A DNA stretch of 64,000 nucleotides, taken from positions 134,607 to 198,606 of IMG/VR virus record IMGVR_UViG_3300029288_000054. One strand, 5' to 3'. The position numbers were made by a program, and so were the translations under genes. The stretch comes from a virus (Duplodnaviria > Heunggongvirae > Uroviricota > Caudoviricetes). Under the pieces are notes generated by a model. It ran no database searches. It saw only the letters and a list, made by a program, of their open reading frames with translations, and was not told the origin of the DNA. Positions within the stretch are counted from its first letter, which is position 1. Each line of letters starts with the position of its first letter. Shown here in pieces: positions 1-60,759 of the stretch.

Positions 1-402
1 GATAAGATGATCGACATACAGAAACTCGATAATGTTTGGGTTGCAATCAGCAGCCAGCTTCAAGAATTTGCGTAATTCTTGTAATTCTGAATCTTCACCC
101 GGTTTATGGACTGTTTCAACAGATAACGACAGATCGCCACGGTCAGTAGCCAGAGCAGCTTCAATCGAGTTTCTGACTGCATGTGGGTCGGCGGCATCAA
201 TAGCATCTAATGCACTATGTAACGCTTGTTTGATGGTGCCAGAGCCGACGAAACTCGTCTGGAAAATGTCGAAGGCGGAAGAGAGCGGTGCAATGAAAAC
301 ACCGCGTCTATCAATATCGCTGTCGGGTCGATTCGTTCCATATTGGTGGGAACCGGATACGAATTGGAAGATGCAATGCTTAATAGCTTCGTCGTAGTGC
401 AT
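1..402 (-). CDS. RlaP/YcgL-like nucleotidyltransferase, partial (runs off window start)
   Basis: Not in the ORF track. Manual translation from ATG at 402: MHYDEAIKHCIFQFVSGSHQYGTNRPDSDIDRRGVF...CNPNIIEFL, matching the GS-x-YG...SDxDxRGV and NPNxxE motifs of this Pol-beta-fold family. Confidence 0.8.
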   Translation of the reverse strand, partial: MHYDEAIKHCIFQFVSGSHQYGTNRPDSDIDRRGVFIAPLSSAFDIFQTSFVGSGTIKQALHSALDAIDAADPHAVRNSIEAALATDRGDLSLSVETVHKPGEDSELQELRKFLKLAADCNPNIIEFLYVDHLI

Positions 403-512: not shown

Positions 513-835
513 TTATCGTTATTATCCTCTACACAAGCAGACAGCATACCCCTGGAAATATTTAGCTGATTGCGAAAAACTTCGATCTGACCAGCTAACG
601 TATGCAGTAAATCTTGTGCGGCTTCGAGCGACTTGAATTGCAAGTACTCTTTTGACATAGTTATCGCGCCATTCTCACATGGCAAATGTCCCACCATAGC
701 CGTCGTTGCTGAGCCGTCACCAGCCGCTCGTAAGAGTATGTCCTCGACACGGCCTAAAAGAGTTTCGCCGTTATCGTCCTCTTTGAATAGCTCTTCAAGG
801 CATGTGAGAGTACGCAGTGTTTCGTTGCTAGCCAT
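509..835 (-). CDS. hypothetical protein
   Basis: 108-aa ORF packed between neighbours on the same strand. Confidence 0.6.
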   Translation of the reverse strand: MASNETLRTLTCLEELFKEDDNGETLLGRVEDILLRAAGDGSATTAMVGHLPCENGAITMSKEYLQFKSLEAAQDLLHTLAGQIEVFRNQLNISRGMLSACVEDNNDK

Positions 836-1338
836 TAGCGTTGCTTTTGTTGTAATATGAAATCATCAAGATAGTTCGTTAACGGTAGCCCCATGACCGA
901 TATCAGCCCTTCGATATCCTCTTCTACGCGGTCTTTCAATCGTTTCAATCGACGCTTACGCTCATGATACGGTTGTTCGTGTAAGTGTCTTTTATCTCTT
1001 TTAGCGTGATTTGAAAGTGGCAGACCTGCTCTGGTCGAAGCGAGATGCTTATCAGCCTTTGTAAGTTTACATTCTATCCTACCGCGAGCTTGGTTGCAAG
1101 CATAGCATGCAATCACTTTGCGGATCACTTGAAGCTCACCACGTTTATTTCTTCTGATGATGCCTAGATCACGCTCTTGTCTTCGTTCATCAAGCTTACT
1201 ATACAGATGGTCCACCGTCGCAGTATCGTCTGGTGTAGTTTCATGGTTAGCGGGAATTACTAACCTGGTCGGACGCCGACACCAATAACAATGCGAATCC
1301 TTTAGCCATAGACGTTCACGTAGACTGTACCTACCCAT
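835..1338 (-). CDS. HNH endonuclease
   Basis: CYWC...TVDHL...ACYACNQARG zinc/HNH motif; leaderless behind the promoter at 1344-1372. Confidence 0.75.
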   Translation of the reverse strand: MGRYSLRERLWLKDSHCYWCRRPTRLVIPANHETTPDDTATVDHLYSKLDERRQERDLGIIRRNKRGELQVIRKVIACYACNQARGRIECKLTKADKHLASTRAGLPLSNHAKRDKRHLHEQPYHERKRRLKRLKDRVEEDIEGLISVMGLPLTNYLDDFILQQKQR

Positions 1339-1343
1339 AAAAG

Positions 1344-1372
1344 TTTATAGCACCAAGGAACTAATTACTTAA
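1344..1372 (-). promoter_or_regulatory. phage promoter
   Basis: TTAAGT-17-TATAAA with GTGC before the -10; ATG follows 5 nt later. Confidence 0.7.
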
Positions 1373-1376
1373 TAAA

Positions 1377-1617
1377 ATGGTAGGTTGGAGTCGACACCAA
1401 CTAGGCTCGGTAAAGCGACGATCTAACCTGCACACGCCGCCTTTAGTAGATCCCCTTGAATGGCTTGCCGCTAGTATCGTTTCAACTAGGGTCCGGCTCG
1501 GTCGCATTGTAACCGCCATATCACCCCGAATACATCTCTGTGTCACCACAGACGGGCAACTTGAAATCTTGAGCCAACACTACTAAATGTTGCACAGTCA
1601 ATCTGTGCCACTACCAT
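1377..1617 (-). ncRNA. candidate 241-nt structured RNA with tRNA-like ends and a pseudoknot
   Basis: Terminal stem ATGGTAG/CTACCAT, T-arm-like GTTGG-TGTCGACT-CCAAC, GNRA hairpin TCTGTG-GTGA-CACAGA, crossing helices GATCTA/TAGATC and TAAAG.GCGGC/GTCGCTTTA. It fills the intergenic gap. Confidence 0.55.
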
Positions 1618-1631
1618 TCAGCAATAAAATA

Positions 1632-2246
1632 CTACCGCCCAGTGAAACTACCTATTTCTTCGTGAGCACGGTCAGATAGACTAGATAAGGCCGTGTGTCT
1701 CAAATTAGCCTTAGAAACCGGAACATCGGGCCTTGTAGCCAATAGTTTTAAGGTAGGTCTATCTACCTCGTAGCCATTGGTGGTTCTTTTATATGCTTTG
1801 CTAGCACTTAGAGCCCGAGCTTCTTCAGGAGTCAATCCAAACCGTTTCATCACAACATCAATGCCGGTCCAGATCGAGTTATATGGCATATTTTGTGGCA
1901 TGGCATCTAGCTTTTGAAGCACTGATACCATTAACCGTGATTCGTTTGATTCGGTCAGCCCATAAAGCTTGGCTGATTGCGGATGGTATTTTCTAATGAT
2001 CTTCTCGCCCTGTTCAACACCTTTCTGTTCCCAGTCGTTGAGTGGCCTATATTTAGAGATCTTGCGTAAGATATTCATGCGTGTTATTGCGGCATGAAAA
2101 TATCTCTCACCCATACCGCTCTGAGTGCAGCACCTAGCATCAGCTTGTTTTAATGCCTGTTCAAGCCGCCATAATTCAGTCCGTGGAGACTTTGATGTTT
2201 TCACACTTGATAGTGCAGACTCTAGTAATTTATCGAAGTTACGCAT
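1632..2246 (-). CDS. hypothetical protein
   Basis: 204-aa ORF. Confidence 0.65.
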   Translation of the reverse strand: MRNFDKLLESALSSVKTSKSPRTELWRLEQALKQADARCCTQSGMGERYFHAAITRMNILRKISKYRPLNDWEQKGVEQGEKIIRKYHPQSAKLYGLTESNESRLMVSVLQKLDAMPQNMPYNSIWTGIDVVMKRFGLTPEEARALSASKAYKRTTNGYEVDRPTLKLLATRPDVPVSKANLRHTALSSLSDRAHEEIGSFTGR

Positions 2247-3571: not shown

Positions 3572-4174
3572 TCAATGTAGTTCGAGAGGGTTTGCGTCTC
3601 CTAGCGTAAGAAGGCCCTTTTCTGTGCGTCGTTCGGGTTCGCATTGATTAGATAACATAACGCCGCACAAATCAAGAAATCCTATCAAAGCAGATTCAAC
3701 CAGTCTAGCACCTTCGGCGGTTAAATTATCCTTGATTATTTTGATACTAAAGGCACTAGCTTGCTCTCTGAGACGTTGGCAATAAGCCGGTCTCGCTGTT
3801 TCACCACAGCCTATTTTATGTCTTTCCCAAGCCCTTCCACCCACTCCTTTGCCAATATAAAAAGGCAATACTTCATTGTCCTTAAACCACACATAGACAT
3901 ACCGACCACGTGGTCCCGGCTTCAGTGGCTTTTGAGATTTTGGCTTTTTTGACTTCGGACTCACACCATCCCAAAACTGCTTTCGGCAATCAGAGCTGCA
4001 GTATTTCTGGTTAGCTGTTTTTCGAATGAATCGTTTACCACACGGGCATTCAATATCTGGTTTCTTATCCTTCTTGCGTTTTCGGCACTCATAACCACAA
4101 TAGACACTCTGATTATGGTTGGCTACGAACGGTTTTCCGCAACGCCGACAATATCTAAGTTCTTTGAACGACAT
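3572..4174 (-). CDS. GIY-YIG-like endonuclease with N-terminal zinc ribbons
   Basis: YVYVWF...FYIGKG...RAWERH and a later ES motif; CRRC/CGYEC and CPC/CSSDC clusters. Confidence 0.65.
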   Translation of the reverse strand: MSFKELRYCRRCGKPFVANHNQSVYCGYECRKRKKDKKPDIECPCGKRFIRKTANQKYCSSDCRKQFWDGVSPKSKKPKSQKPLKPGPRGRYVYVWFKDNEVLPFYIGKGVGGRAWERHKIGCGETARPAYCQRLREQASAFSIKIIKDNLTAEGARLVESALIGFLDLCGVMLSNQCEPERRTEKGLLTLGDANPLELH

Positions 4175-46476: not shown

Positions 46477-46610
46477 GTGCTGTGTGGCGCAGAAGTGGGC
46501 TACTTCGCCTACGGAGCGGGTGGTCGCGGGTTCGAATCCCGTCACCGGTTCGCCGGTGTAGCTCAGTTGGCAGAGCACCTACGTACCTACTTCGCTTATT
46601 CCCACAGCAC
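46477..46610 (+). ncRNA. YrlA-like Y RNA 1 (tRNA module, ACG loop)
   Basis: Terminal stem GTGCTGTG/CACAGCAC, GAAGTGGG/CCTACTTC helix, T arm GCGGG-TTCGAAT-CCCGT, acceptor closed by TTCG, D arm GCTC-AGTTGGCA-GAGC, followed by a T run; upstream of Ro60. Confidence 0.9.
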
Positions 46611-47195: not shown

Positions 47196-47331
47196 TTGCT
47201 GCGTGGCGTAGAGGTGGGATACTTCGAATGCTAATCGAGAGGTCGCCGGTTTGAGTCCGGCCATCCGAGCAATCGGATGTAGCTCAGTTGAATAGAGCGC
47301 TACGTACCTACTTCGCTCATTCCCGCAGCAA
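47196..47331 (+). ncRNA. YrlA-like Y RNA 3 (tRNA module, GCT loop)
   Basis: TTGCTGCG/CGCAGCAA stem; T arm GCCGG-TTTGAGT-CCGGC; acceptor CATCCGA-GCAA-TCGGATG; D arm GCTC/GAGC; compensatory changes relative to RNA 1. Confidence 0.9.
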
Positions 47332-47537: not shown

Positions 47538-48935
47538 ATGGCAGCCATCAACAAGAAGACGAAGAAGTCACACGTTTACGCCGATGAAAAGTTGGCGGGT
47601 GGATATGGTCCAAGGGCTGCCAAGCAGAACGCAGAGGCAACTTTACGCCGTCTTGTCATGACGTGTCTCTTGTGGGAGGATAACGCCTATTGCGACGGAA
47701 AAGCTGTCGTAGATCAGATCAAGGCGTTGGTTCCGCAGGTGCCGAACGTTGGTAAGATTGCTGTTGAGGCTCGTTATGAGCAGAAGCTTCGACACGTACC
47801 GCTGATGCTTGTCCGCGAAATGGCTCGTCATCATATGCCGGATGTGGCCGAGACATTGGCGAAAGTGTGCAACCGTCCGGATGAGATGACAGAATTCATC
47901 GCCATGTATTGGGCTGATAACGCCAAAAAGAAGTCGCTTGCGGCTGCCGTGAAGAAGGGCTTGGCGAAGGCGTTTGGTAAGTTCGACGAATACCAACTGG
48001 CCAAGTACAACCAGACGGATCAAGCTGTGAAGCTGCGAGACGTCTTGTTCTTATGTCATGCAAAGCCGACCGATGATCGTCAGGATCTCTATAAGCGGCT
48101 AATCATCAACGAGCTTAAGACTCCCGATACGTGGGAAGTTGGTATGTCGGCGGCTAAGAGCGTTGCCGAAAAGCGAGCAGTCTGGGAACGGTTGGTCGAG
48201 GACCGAAAGCTTCCGGCGTTCGCTTTCCTCAAAAACCTGCGAAACATGCAGGAGGTAAACGTCTCACGTGAGTCGATGGCGAAGGCATTTGCGAACTGTA
48301 AAGTGGACATGTTGTTGCCAATCGATTTCTTGAAGGCCCGTAAGTATGCCCCGGATTGGACCCGAGAGATCGAGGAGTTGATGTATCGATGTGCTCAGAC
48401 GTGGCCGAGACTTTCAGGCTGGACGACTTTAGCCGTCGACGTTTCTGGTTCGATGGGAAGTGCCGTGTCCGCCAAATCTGAATTTTCTCGGATGGACGCA
48501 GCCGCTTCGATGGCGGTTTTAGCAGCGGAGTGCTGCGACCACGTTTCCATCTACGCTACGGCTGGAAACGATGGTACGCGAAAGCATGCCACGAAGAAGA
48601 TAGAAGCCCTTCGTGGTTTCGCCCTGGCCGACAAAATCTTGGAAGCGAAGTACACCCTCGGCGGTGGAGGTATCTTCACCAGACAAGTCTGCGATTTCAT
48701 CCGCAGCAAAGAAGAAGCACCTGATCGGTTGCTTATTTTCAGCGATTCGCAAGACTGCGATGCACCTGGATCGGGCCTGCCGAAGCCGCATGGCAAGAGC
48801 AACTACATCATTGACGTCTCTTCACATTCGCACGGCGTCAATTATCAAGGCGTTTGGACTGCCGAAATTGCTGGCTGGTCTGAACGTTTCTTGAAGTTCG
48901 TTGCGATGATGGAACAAGCTGACAGCTTGCAATGA
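47538..48935 (+). CDS. rsr: Ro60 ortholog (TROVE plus vWA)
   Basis: KFDEYQLAKY, VKLRDVL, TPDTWEV, LKNLRNM; vWA MIDAS DVSGSM and IFSDSQD; flanking Y RNAs. Confidence 0.95.
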   Translation: MAAINKKTKKSHVYADEKLAGGYGPRAAKQNAEATLRRLVMTCLLWEDNAYCDGKAVVDQIKALVPQVPNVGKIAVEARYEQKLRHVPLMLVREMARHHMPDVAETLAKVCNRPDEMTEFIAMYWADNAKKKSLAAAVKKGLAKAFGKFDEYQLAKYNQTDQAVKLRDVLFLCHAKPTDDRQDLYKRLIINELKTPDTWEVGMSAAKSVAEKRAVWERLVEDRKLPAFAFLKNLRNMQEVNVSRESMAKAFANCKVDMLLPIDFLKARKYAPDWTREIEELMYRCAQTWPRLSGWTTLAVDVSGSMGSAVSAKSEFSRMDAAASMAVLAAECCDHVSIYATAGNDGTRKHATKKIEALRGFALADKILEAKYTLGGGGIFTRQVCDFIRSKEEAPDRLLIFSDSQDCDAPGSGLPKPHGKSNYIIDVSSHSHGVNYQGVWTAEIAGWSERFLKFVAMMEQADSLQ

Positions 48936-60051: not shown

Positions 60052-60759
60052 CTATGTTGGTTTCCAGTTCCAAACGTCCTCACCATAAGTTTCAGCGAAG
60101 TATTTGCCGTCAACTTTATCGCCTCGGACGAATTTTGCGAGGAAATCAACTCGGCCAAGTCTCTCAACTCGATATACGACGCCTTCAATAGGATCAATAG
60201 CACCATGATGATTTCGTTCTTGAGCAAATTTGAGAGCGACCGATGGGAGCATTGGTGGCCCCATTGATATTACGAAAGGTGTAATCAGTCGCGTGGCAGC
60301 GATGCGCTCGCAAAATTCGCTGAATACAGCTCGTCTGTCGAGCTTTTTACGGCTCTTCATAATATCGAAAGGCACAAAAGGTTCGTGCCACAACTTATAG
60401 CGGGTGCTATGTGCTAATGCGAGCCACTCTCCGACGACCCTTTCACCCTCTTCGAGCCAGGTAAAACGATCAACGTTCTCCATCACCCAGTTATGAAACA
60501 TCCGATGATGATGCCAGGGGGCTGAGACGGCTGGCCATCCGGCCCTATTCAACGGCATAATCAAACCATTGAGCCGGGCAACGGCACAACATGAACCATC
60601 AAGTTTCTCCTGAATAATAACCCGGTCGAATTCGTCGCGTACCTTCTTGGTGCAGATGACGGCCATCCCCTCATCGACATTATGGTCACCAGGGCCAAGC
60701 CGACTATTCGGCAGGTGCCCGATGCTACCATACGCTTTACGCCCAAGTGGTTTGCTCAT
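60052..60759 (-). CDS. RNA ligase (Rnl2-like nucleotidyltransferase)
   Basis: QEKLDGS, GEW, FVPFD, EGVVYR, LAKFVR; start at the second Met because the promoter -10 overlaps ATG 60798. Confidence 0.8.
   Translation of the reverse strand: MSKPLGRKAYGSIGHLPNSRLGPGDHNVDEGMAVICTKKVRDEFDRVIIQEKLDGSCCAVARLNGLIMPLNRAGWPAVSAPWHHHRMFHNWVMENVDRFTWLEEGERVVGEWLALAHSTRYKLWHEPFVPFDIMKSRKKLDRRAVFSEFCERIAATRLITPFVISMGPPMLPSVALKFAQERNHHGAIDPIEGVVYRVERLGRVDFLAKFVRGDKVDGKYFAETYGEDVWNWKPT

Follow-up and report, generated by a model that had tools for sequence, protein, structure and literature searches.

We analyzed a 64,000-nt stretch of DNA (the window) that makes up bases 134,607–198,606 of the 388,105-bp record IMGVR_UViG_3300029288_000054, a tailed phage (Caudoviricetes) with a CheckV completeness of 99%. 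Landfill and groundwater metagenomes hold DNA that is near-identical to the window. Near the start of the window, a 293-nt gap between two minus-strand open reading frames (ORFs; 1632–2246 and 835–1338) holds what is almost certainly a real, conserved structured RNA of a new family. An earlier note, made from the letters of the DNA alone, had proposed a 241-nt RNA on the minus strand here (1377–1617), with a tRNA-like domain and a pseudoknot, just upstream of an HNH gene. From upstream to downstream, the locus contains these features (positions are those of the window unless stated otherwise):

1632–2246, minus strand: 204-aa ORF, upstream of the RNA; its stop codon is 14 nt before the RNA's 7-bp stem
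1623–1631, minus strand: conserved non-coding TATTTTATT, directly past the stop codon of the 204-aa ORF and ahead of the RNA; kept in 7/7 loci
1372–1622, minus strand: structured RNA, as matched by the covariance model (cmsearch, 288 bits); paired core 1375–1619, about 245 nt
1339–1374, minus strand: predicted promoter of the HNH-like gene, with an AT-rich box TTATTAAGTAATTAG and an extended -10 TGCTATAAA (1344–1352), ending 5 nt before the ATG at 1338
835–1338, minus strand: HNH-like ORF of 167 aa, with an N-terminal zinc-finger nuclease core and long C-terminal helices; full length in all relatives

The RNA folds into 14 helices with 80 pairs. A five-way junction opens from the closing stem P1: the 7-bp core of P1 is followed by a 2-nt linker, hairpins H2 and H3, the 5-bp helix P4, and hairpin H14, which is separated from P1 by 0 nt. 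The inner module has eight helices: P5; P6 and H7; P9 with H10 and P11/H12; and H13. All of the nested helices that the earlier note had listed are present in the minus-strand minimum-free-energy fold and in the RNAalifold consensus of five MAFFT-aligned homologs. Its boundaries correspond to the 7-bp version of the closing stem, but the paired core is wider. The main elements are:

1619–1611 with 1383–1375, minus strand: closing stem P1 (acceptor-like), 7–9 bp; three compensatory pairs (A-U to G-C, and G-C to A-U twice), plus a G-U intermediate
1592–1608, minus strand: hairpin H2 (D-arm position), GCACA(G)/(C)UGUGC, 5–6 bp; one compensatory pair; loop of 5–7 nt, variable in sequence and without the G18G19 signature
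1576–1591, minus strand: hairpin H3 (the earlier note's anticodon-like hairpin), AACAUU/AGUGUU; covaries among six sequences and is deleted in one relative (L012); loop of 4–6 nt, not 7
1575–1571 with 1408–1404, minus strand: helix P4, GGCUC/GAGCC, 5 bp, closing the 162-nt inner module
1543–1546, minus strand: loop GUGA of the GNRA hairpin H7, which has three compensatory pairs
1504–1510, minus strand: loop ACAAUGC (L10, 7 nt) of H10; invariant in 7/7 sequences
1455–1459, minus strand: UCAAG at a three-way junction; invariant in 7/7 sequences
1447–1452 with 1420–1425 (inside loop L13), minus strand: candidate pseudoknot GAUCUA/UAGAUC
1443–1432 with 1423–1412, minus strand: hairpin H13, which covaries (three compensatory pairs); its 14-nt loop L13 (1421–1434) is invariant in 7/7 sequences
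1384–1401, minus strand: hairpin H14 (T-arm position), GUUGG/CCAAC; invariant 5-bp stem and variable 8–10 nt loop

Thermodynamics alone is within chance, so the comparison with relatives decides. The energy of the minus-strand fold has a z-score of −1.34 (16 of 200 shuffled sequences fold as well), and the plus strand folds neither better nor worse. The earlier note had held that the RNA would be refuted if shuffled sequences folded as well. On energy some of them do, but this is overridden by the covariation.

We found relatives via the neighboring proteins and fetched their contigs; a metagenome pattern scan was run in addition. This gave six further distinct copies (L009, L005, L008, L026, L037, and L012), which are 95% to 64% identical to the window. 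The family therefore comprises seven distinct sequences, from contigs of closely related giant phages in landfill and groundwater metagenomes. With five of these sequences, RNAalifold returned the same 80-pair structure, and 16 pairs had compensatory double changes. In the alignment of all seven, 97.1% of the cells are paired, and compensatory double changes occur at 18 of the 80 pairs. Shuffled controls had 5.9 ± 1.7 compensatory pairs and none of 500 reached 18; if the 3' partners were slid by 1–3 columns, 0–3 compensatory pairs remained. The compensatory changes are spread over P1 (3), H2, H3, P5, P6, H7 (3), P9 (3), H10, H12, and H13 (3). Thus, the homolog search and covariation check that the earlier note had suggested yielded six homologs and strong covariation.

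The comparison also fixes the strand. Invariant G-U pairs and one-sided changes from G-C to G-U fit the minus strand only, as had been proposed. The GNRA loop that had been noticed in the window is GNRA in every sequence (GUGA in six and GCGA in L037). L10, L13, and the UCAAG junction are invariant although the sequences are only 64–66% identical overall.

The RNA is under purifying selection. It is 84–95% identical between the window and its relatives (about 66% for L012, which has two deletions), while in the flanking genes of the same relatives, third codon positions are 47–74% identical. The RNA thus changes at the pace of first and second codon positions, and not at that of neutral sites. 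Identity to the window is uneven across the locus in two relatives. In L005, the HNH-like gene is 98/98/92% identical by codon position but the RNA is only 86% identical; in L009, the RNA is 95% identical and the HNH-like gene is 86/90/65% identical. This mosaic relatedness suggests recombination breakpoints between the RNA and the HNH-like gene.

The conserved element is the RNA and not a small protein, as every candidate ORF is broken, no frame is conserved, and there is no family match. The earlier note had considered that a 69-aa plus-strand ORF might be what is conserved. Stops or frameshifts interrupt this ORF in 6/6 relatives; even L009, at 95% identity, has a stop. In the strand of the RNA itself, 1-nt indels shift every frame between homologs, and the substitutions that were compared between the window and L005 alter the amino acids. 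Neither the 69-aa ORF nor the minus-strand ORF has a family match.

The RNA is present as a single copy in the 388-kb genome. Among 50,697 deposited phage genomes, BLASTN found no match to the RNA locus or to the surrounding 8 kb. We also scanned IMG/VR, JGI metagenomes, and 185,579 species genomes for patterns of the invariant loops, and the covariance model confirmed only the known relatives and L037. The remaining pattern matches were due to chance; one was an unrelated coding gene that shares a 58-nt spacing. The RNA was not found in the 214-kb record of a distant HNH relative (L006). Complements of the invariant loops occur in the phage genome at chance level only.

No RNA dataset is listed as holding this stretch of the window. 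A wastewater run that is labelled RNA-Seq cDNA has one 165-nt contig that is identical to 1441–1603, and nothing else of 700–2400. The run is flagged as probably DNA, and as this is one contig from one study, we treat it as a lead only and did not use it as evidence of expression.

Of the two crossing helices that the earlier note had described, one (1445–1436/1419–1411) is H13, which covaries. The other (1452–1447/1425–1420) is complementary but has no compensatory change. It can form in 7/7 sequences, with five invariant pairs and one pair that is an A-C mismatch in five of the seven. It overlaps the outer half of the 3' strand of P5, so it competes with P5. The inner pairs of P5 covary, and a G/A change at alignment column 174 suits P5 and not the pseudoknot. 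In P5, G56 is mismatched in two sequences and its partner C177 is invariant. As judged from these substitutions, it is possible that the RNA forms a pseudoknot, or that it switches between the pseudoknot and the P5 pairings.

The RNA belongs to no known family. Rfam 15 covariance models gave no match at E ≤ 10, either over 2 kb or over the 281-nt locus; across the whole window, tRNA-Leu is the only model to reach its gathering score. ARAGORN reported no tRNA or tmRNA at the locus at default settings, with or without introns, and none with -m; at lowered thresholds, its calls were inconsistent between homologs. The description of an undescribed class of phage non-coding RNA thus holds at the level of the RNA family, given the conserved homologs, the covariation, and the lack of a match from Rfam or ARAGORN.

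The tRNA-like domain was borne out in its junction geometry only. As in the tRNA cloverleaf (RF00005), seven core pairs in P1 are followed by 2 nt and H2, and H14 abuts P1. A tRNA has a 7-nt T-loop (UUCRANY) and a D-loop with G18G19; here, the H14 loop has 8–10 nt and the H2 loop has 5–7 nt, and both vary. Instead of an anticodon arm (5-bp stem, 7-nt loop, U33), P4 bears the 162-nt module. The third pair of P1 is G-C (A-U in L012) and never G-U, a U-rich stretch and not CCA follows the stem, and there is no conserved frame; so G3-U70, CCA, and a tag are indeed absent, as had been noticed. The tRNA finders' silence is explained by these traits: H3 is absent from L012, the T- and H2 loops vary, the third pair is not G-U, and there is no CCA.

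Giant phages carry tmRNA-like genes, and the layout of the RNA resembles tmRNA (RF00023, clan CL00001). In both, the ends form an acceptor-like stem, the hairpin in the T position is stacked directly on that stem, and a large body of many helices extends from the long helix that takes the place of the anticodon stem. The body of tmRNA has pseudoknots, and the RNA has one candidate. Unlike tmRNA, the RNA has no G3-U70, encoded CCA, conserved T-loop, resume codon, or tag frame. In particular, no tag frame with a resume codon and a stop could be maintained across the homologs, as 1-nt indels shift all frames. The tmRNA model has no match at the RNA locus. It does match three T-arm-like 17-mers elsewhere in the genome; the third (12.9 bits, genome positions 96281–96297, minus strand, outside the window) may mark another tRNA-like RNA.

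The RlaP gene nearby prompted the idea that this might be a Y RNA (RF02553). The hallmarks of YrlA are a Ro-binding motif (GNCGAAN0-1G) near the 5' end and near-invariant T and D stem-loops (Chen et al. 2014, PMC4201824). We rejected the idea: the motif is missing in 7/7 sequences, and RF02553 has no match at the locus. Nor is the RNA within about 4 kb of a Ro60 gene and on its strand; the Ro60-like gene is 46 kb away, on the other strand. The RNA is like YrlA in that it is phage-encoded and non-decoding and has a tRNA-shaped module; its genome, too, has genes for Ro60 and RlaP. It is unlike YrlA in that its termini form the acceptor-like stem, while those of YrlA exit via the anticodon-stem position, and in that the invariant T and D arms are missing. 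The true YrlA-like RNAs of this phage are elsewhere (46519–46579 and 47212–47325).

A group I intron (RF00028) was rejected as well. The resemblance to group I introns with HNH homing-endonuclease ORFs is in the similar size, the GNRA loop, and a neighboring HNH ORF in a phage. But no host gene is split, the HNH ORF lies outside the fold, and RF00028, the model that would detect the P3-P8/P4-P6 core, has no match at E ≤ 10 anywhere in the genome. The flanking ORFs are separate, complete, and unrelated, with coupled neighbors. We also rejected HEARO, or IscB omega RNA (RF02033), which is likewise a structured RNA of a few hundred nt directly upstream of a co-oriented HNH-domain gene. Rfam gave no match, and the partner here has 167 aa (an HNH-like core plus helices) instead of about 400–500 aa with RuvC and HNH. 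Furthermore, neither end of the RNA is free to act as a guide, and some relatives keep the partner gene, which has its own predicted promoter, but lack the RNA.

The gene next to the RNA is HNH-like by its motifs, its language-model neighbors, and weak fold matches. The motifs CxxC...DH...N...CxxCN are invariant across 13 relatives, 85–100% of the language-model neighbors are PF01844 (score 0.91), and weak fold matches (Z 4.1–4.6) are to the HNH domains of ZRANB3, Cas9, and T4 endonuclease VII. The protein has no match in Pfam or PHROG, its family profile has no match in PDB, and Foldseek gave nothing at E ≤ 0.001. Calling it an HNH gene seems reasonable on these similarities, though no curated model proves it. 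In every relative, the full-length frame begins 39 nt after the RNA; the shorter gene calls in public records reflect the choice of start codon.

The spacer between the RNA and the HNH-like gene contains GGTGCTATAA, which is invariant in all relatives and is kept in L011, where the RNA is missing. TGCTATAAA occurs three times in the window, as against 0.33 expected. It is part of a recurring promoter-like motif: an AT-rich box (AATTAAT or TTAATTAG), about 13–16 nt, and then TGCTATAA(A/T). Besides the window, we noticed this motif at genome positions 176017, 208123, 232632, and 235002 (all on the minus strand), and at 2960–3003 of L011. The motif heads other genes of the genome, and in at least two cases, the ATG is exactly 5 nt later, which suggests leaderless mRNAs. 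In the same way, the HNH-like gene is most likely transcribed from a promoter of its own, as a leaderless mRNA. This argues that the RNA is not a riboswitch or leader.

The 204-aa ORF, on the other side of the RNA, has no Pfam, PHROG, or Atlas assignment. The predicted model of its protein (pLDDT 76) has only generic helical-bundle matches and weak winged-helix matches. Downstream of the HNH-like ORF, the same strand encodes a 108-aa ORF, a 36-aa ORF, and then the 351-aa RlaP; the conserved order is 204-aa ORF, RNA, HNH-like, 108 aa, RlaP.

The RNA always lies between the 204-aa gene and the HNH-like gene, and neither gene needs the RNA. The linkage to HNH that had been noticed holds in 7/7 loci that bear the RNA, but HNH and RlaP are kept without the RNA in L011, L016, and L017. 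In L011 (HNH 59% identical), only the N-terminal 90 residues of the 204-aa gene are left, the RNA is missing, and the HNH promoter and gene are intact (L011:2626–3003), so the promoter is independent of the RNA. This arrangement looks like a natural deletion of the RNA. In L016 and L017, two protein genes occupy the place of the RNA. L024 has the 204-aa gene and neither the RNA nor HNH-RlaP.

The window encodes these features related to RNA repair:

1–402, minus strand: N-terminal part of RlaP (351-aa RNA 3'-end nucleotidyltransferase; PF10127, phrog_388); the gene runs off the window start
46519–46579, plus strand: YrlA-like Y RNA (43.7 bits, E = 1e-7; below the Rfam gathering cut-off)
47212–47325, plus strand: YrlA-like Y RNA (35.8 bits, E = 2e-5; below the Rfam gathering cut-off)
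47538–48935, plus strand: TROVE/Ro60-like ORF of 465 aa, 46 kb from the RNA and on the opposite strand
about 60130–60624, minus strand: Rnl2-type RNA ligase domain (PF09414; E = 5e-13), the sole such ligase match in the genome

RlaP extends damaged 3' ends of RNA by one or two nucleotides (PMC12776372), and the restoration of heavily damaged tRNA requires RlaP (PMC12776372, PMC7824862). Both YrlA-like RNAs have near-perfect T and D arms and lie just upstream of the TROVE/Ro60-like ORF, so that the classic arrangement of Ro60 and Y RNA is present on a giant phage. We found neither RtcB nor a CCA-adding enzyme in the phage genome. The genes for repair (those of RlaP, Ro60, and the ligase) do not form one operon but are scattered across the 64-kb stretch.

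We propose that the RNA is a stable, trans-acting, tRNA-shaped scaffold or decoy in the phage's RNA-damage and repair biology (we put the probability of this at roughly 40%). It would be transcribed behind the 204-aa gene by read-through, or else from an unrecognized promoter in the TATTTTATT spacer. Its 3' end is probably at the U-run that directly follows the closing stem. Its tRNA-like junction would let the RNA be handled, or persist, like a tRNA, and its partner (a protein or another RNA) would be bound by the invariant loops. Judging by their invariance, ACAAUGC, the 14-nt loop of H13, and UCAAG look like binding or tertiary-contact surfaces. The likely setting is a conflict over RNA damage and repair that is served by RlaP, the Ro60/YrlA genes, and the Rnl2-type ligase. 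We infer that the RNA exists as a separate stable molecule, and its ends, its partner, and its role are proposed on the same footing.

Several observations weigh against this proposal. The seven sequences are close kin, so there are few independent covariation events, and most of these are on the L012 branch. The likeness to tRNA is topological only: the loops in the D and T positions vary and lack tRNA signatures, H3 is dispensable, and ARAGORN and Rfam are blank. The link between the RNA and the repair genes is not obligatory, as HNH-RlaP occurs without the RNA (L011, L016, and L017), as does the 204-aa gene (L024). And no promoter was recognized upstream, which is also compatible with a cis-acting element in the 3' untranslated region (3'-UTR) of the 204-aa gene.

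Such a 3'-UTR element would end and protect the mRNA of the 204-aa gene, whether by termination, by blocking exonucleases, or as a site of processing, and would have no function in trans. The RNA begins 14 nt past the stop codon of the 204-aa ORF, a U-run follows its closing stem, and the next gene has a promoter of its own. The promoter scan found no sigma-70 match in the TATTTTATT spacer or in the region upstream of the RNA. (TATTTTATT may act as a -10-like element, a putative role that we raise as a query.) But the terminator scan was blank at the RNA locus; 14 helices, 80 pairs, and invariant loops of 7 and 14 nt exceed the needs of a terminator or a stabilizer; and L024, L016, and L017 have homologs of the 204-aa gene but not the RNA. 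We consider the 3'-UTR element to be a minor possibility that should be taken seriously. As for the edges of the locus, an 8-nt direct repeat ATTTTATT flanks the RNA in the window and might have been a target-site duplication; we rejected this because the repeat is not retained in the relatives.

A bolder alternative is that this is a new class of large functional phage RNA, which would be catalytic or else a ribonucleoprotein subunit with the HNH-like protein, RlaP, or both. In the ribonucleoprotein version, the RNA might aim the nuclease or the RNA-end-repair enzyme at tRNA-like substrates. In either version, we would expect the invariant loops (7 and 14 nt) to form the active or recognition surface. 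We regard this as doubtful.

The RNA could be a ribozyme, such as a self-processing RNA that excises itself from an operon transcript. Catalytic RNAs typically have such a size and complexity, a GNRA loop, invariant nucleotides in junctions and loops, and a pseudoknot (here only a possible one), and the RNA lies between two genes of one strand. However, it has no similarity to the ribozyme families of Rfam or to group I introns, and there is no interrupted gene. A ribozyme is therefore unlikely in our view.

We also considered that the RNA might be a 5' leader or riboswitch that controls the HNH-like/RlaP operon, since the HNH gene starts 39 nt downstream of it on the same strand, and since aptamers are usually laid out in this way, with a P1 stem that closes a junction of several helices. 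This seems inconsistent with the conserved extended -10 between the RNA and the ATG, 5 nt from what is the predicted start, which would make the mRNA leaderless. Furthermore, there is no expression platform and no match to a riboswitch in Rfam, and L011 keeps the same promoter and gene without the RNA. We judge this role to be even less probable than a ribozyme.

It is very unlikely that the RNA is a cofactor or guide of the HNH-like nuclease, in a layout like that of IscB and its omega RNA. It is directly upstream of the HNH gene in the same orientation in 7/7 RNA-bearing loci, and Cas9 HNH domains are among the top, albeit weak, fold matches (Z 4.1–4.5) for the first 100 residues of the protein. 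But the 5' and 3' ends of the RNA pair with each other, which leaves no free guide; the protein, of 167 aa, lacks a RuvC domain, and we noted no transposon ends; HNH relatives occur without the RNA (L011, L016, and L017), and the HNH gene has a separate predicted promoter. HEARO and the other Rfam families are unmatched, and complements of the loops in the phage genome are at chance level.

A degenerate or intron-bearing tRNA, or a divergent tmRNA, would account for the tRNA-like junction and for the large insert where an anticodon loop or the body of a tmRNA would sit. With ARAGORN blank at its default settings, the Rfam models for tRNA and tmRNA missing the locus, H3 deleted in L012, a variable loop of 8–10 nt in the T position, no G3-U70, and no conserved frame, we find this highly improbable. 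Finally, a small protein gene (the 69-aa plus-strand ORF, which is open in the window, or the minus-strand ORF) or a chance fold (the z-score being only −1.34) is refuted, as the 69-aa ORF is interrupted in 6/6 relatives and has no family match, and as the covariation, together with conservation far above that of synonymous sites, excludes chance.

Our comparisons support novelty at the level of the RNA family: the RNA has no relative in Rfam, and of the family traits tested, the one that it clearly shares is the junction geometry. By new we mean a new RNA family and not a new mechanism, and the RNA was not compared with the 10,006 unnamed candidates predicted from IMG/VR (Fremin et al. 2023, PMC10690425). 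The phage that hosts it invests unusually in RNA-damage biology, with RlaP, Ro60 and two Y RNAs, and an Rnl2-type ligase in one 64-kb stretch. Few natural RNAs of over 200 nt have many covarying helices together with invariant loops, and the large structured RNAs that are understood proved to be ribozymes, the cores of ribonucleoproteins, or elaborate decoys. If the RNA is indeed a stable molecule, then it would be a compact subject (about 245 nt) for structural work, and possibly a new player in the tRNA-centered arms race between phages and their hosts.

About 2 kb from the RNA, we noticed what is possibly a second, free-standing nuclease of the homing type: a 200-aa ORF at 3572–4174 on the minus strand. 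Its N-terminal part has repeated CxxC zinc-finger units, and it matches phrog_1271 ("HNH endonuclease") with E = 4.5e-10. By eye, the C-terminal half contains a GIY-YIG-like segment (YVYVW...FYIGKG).

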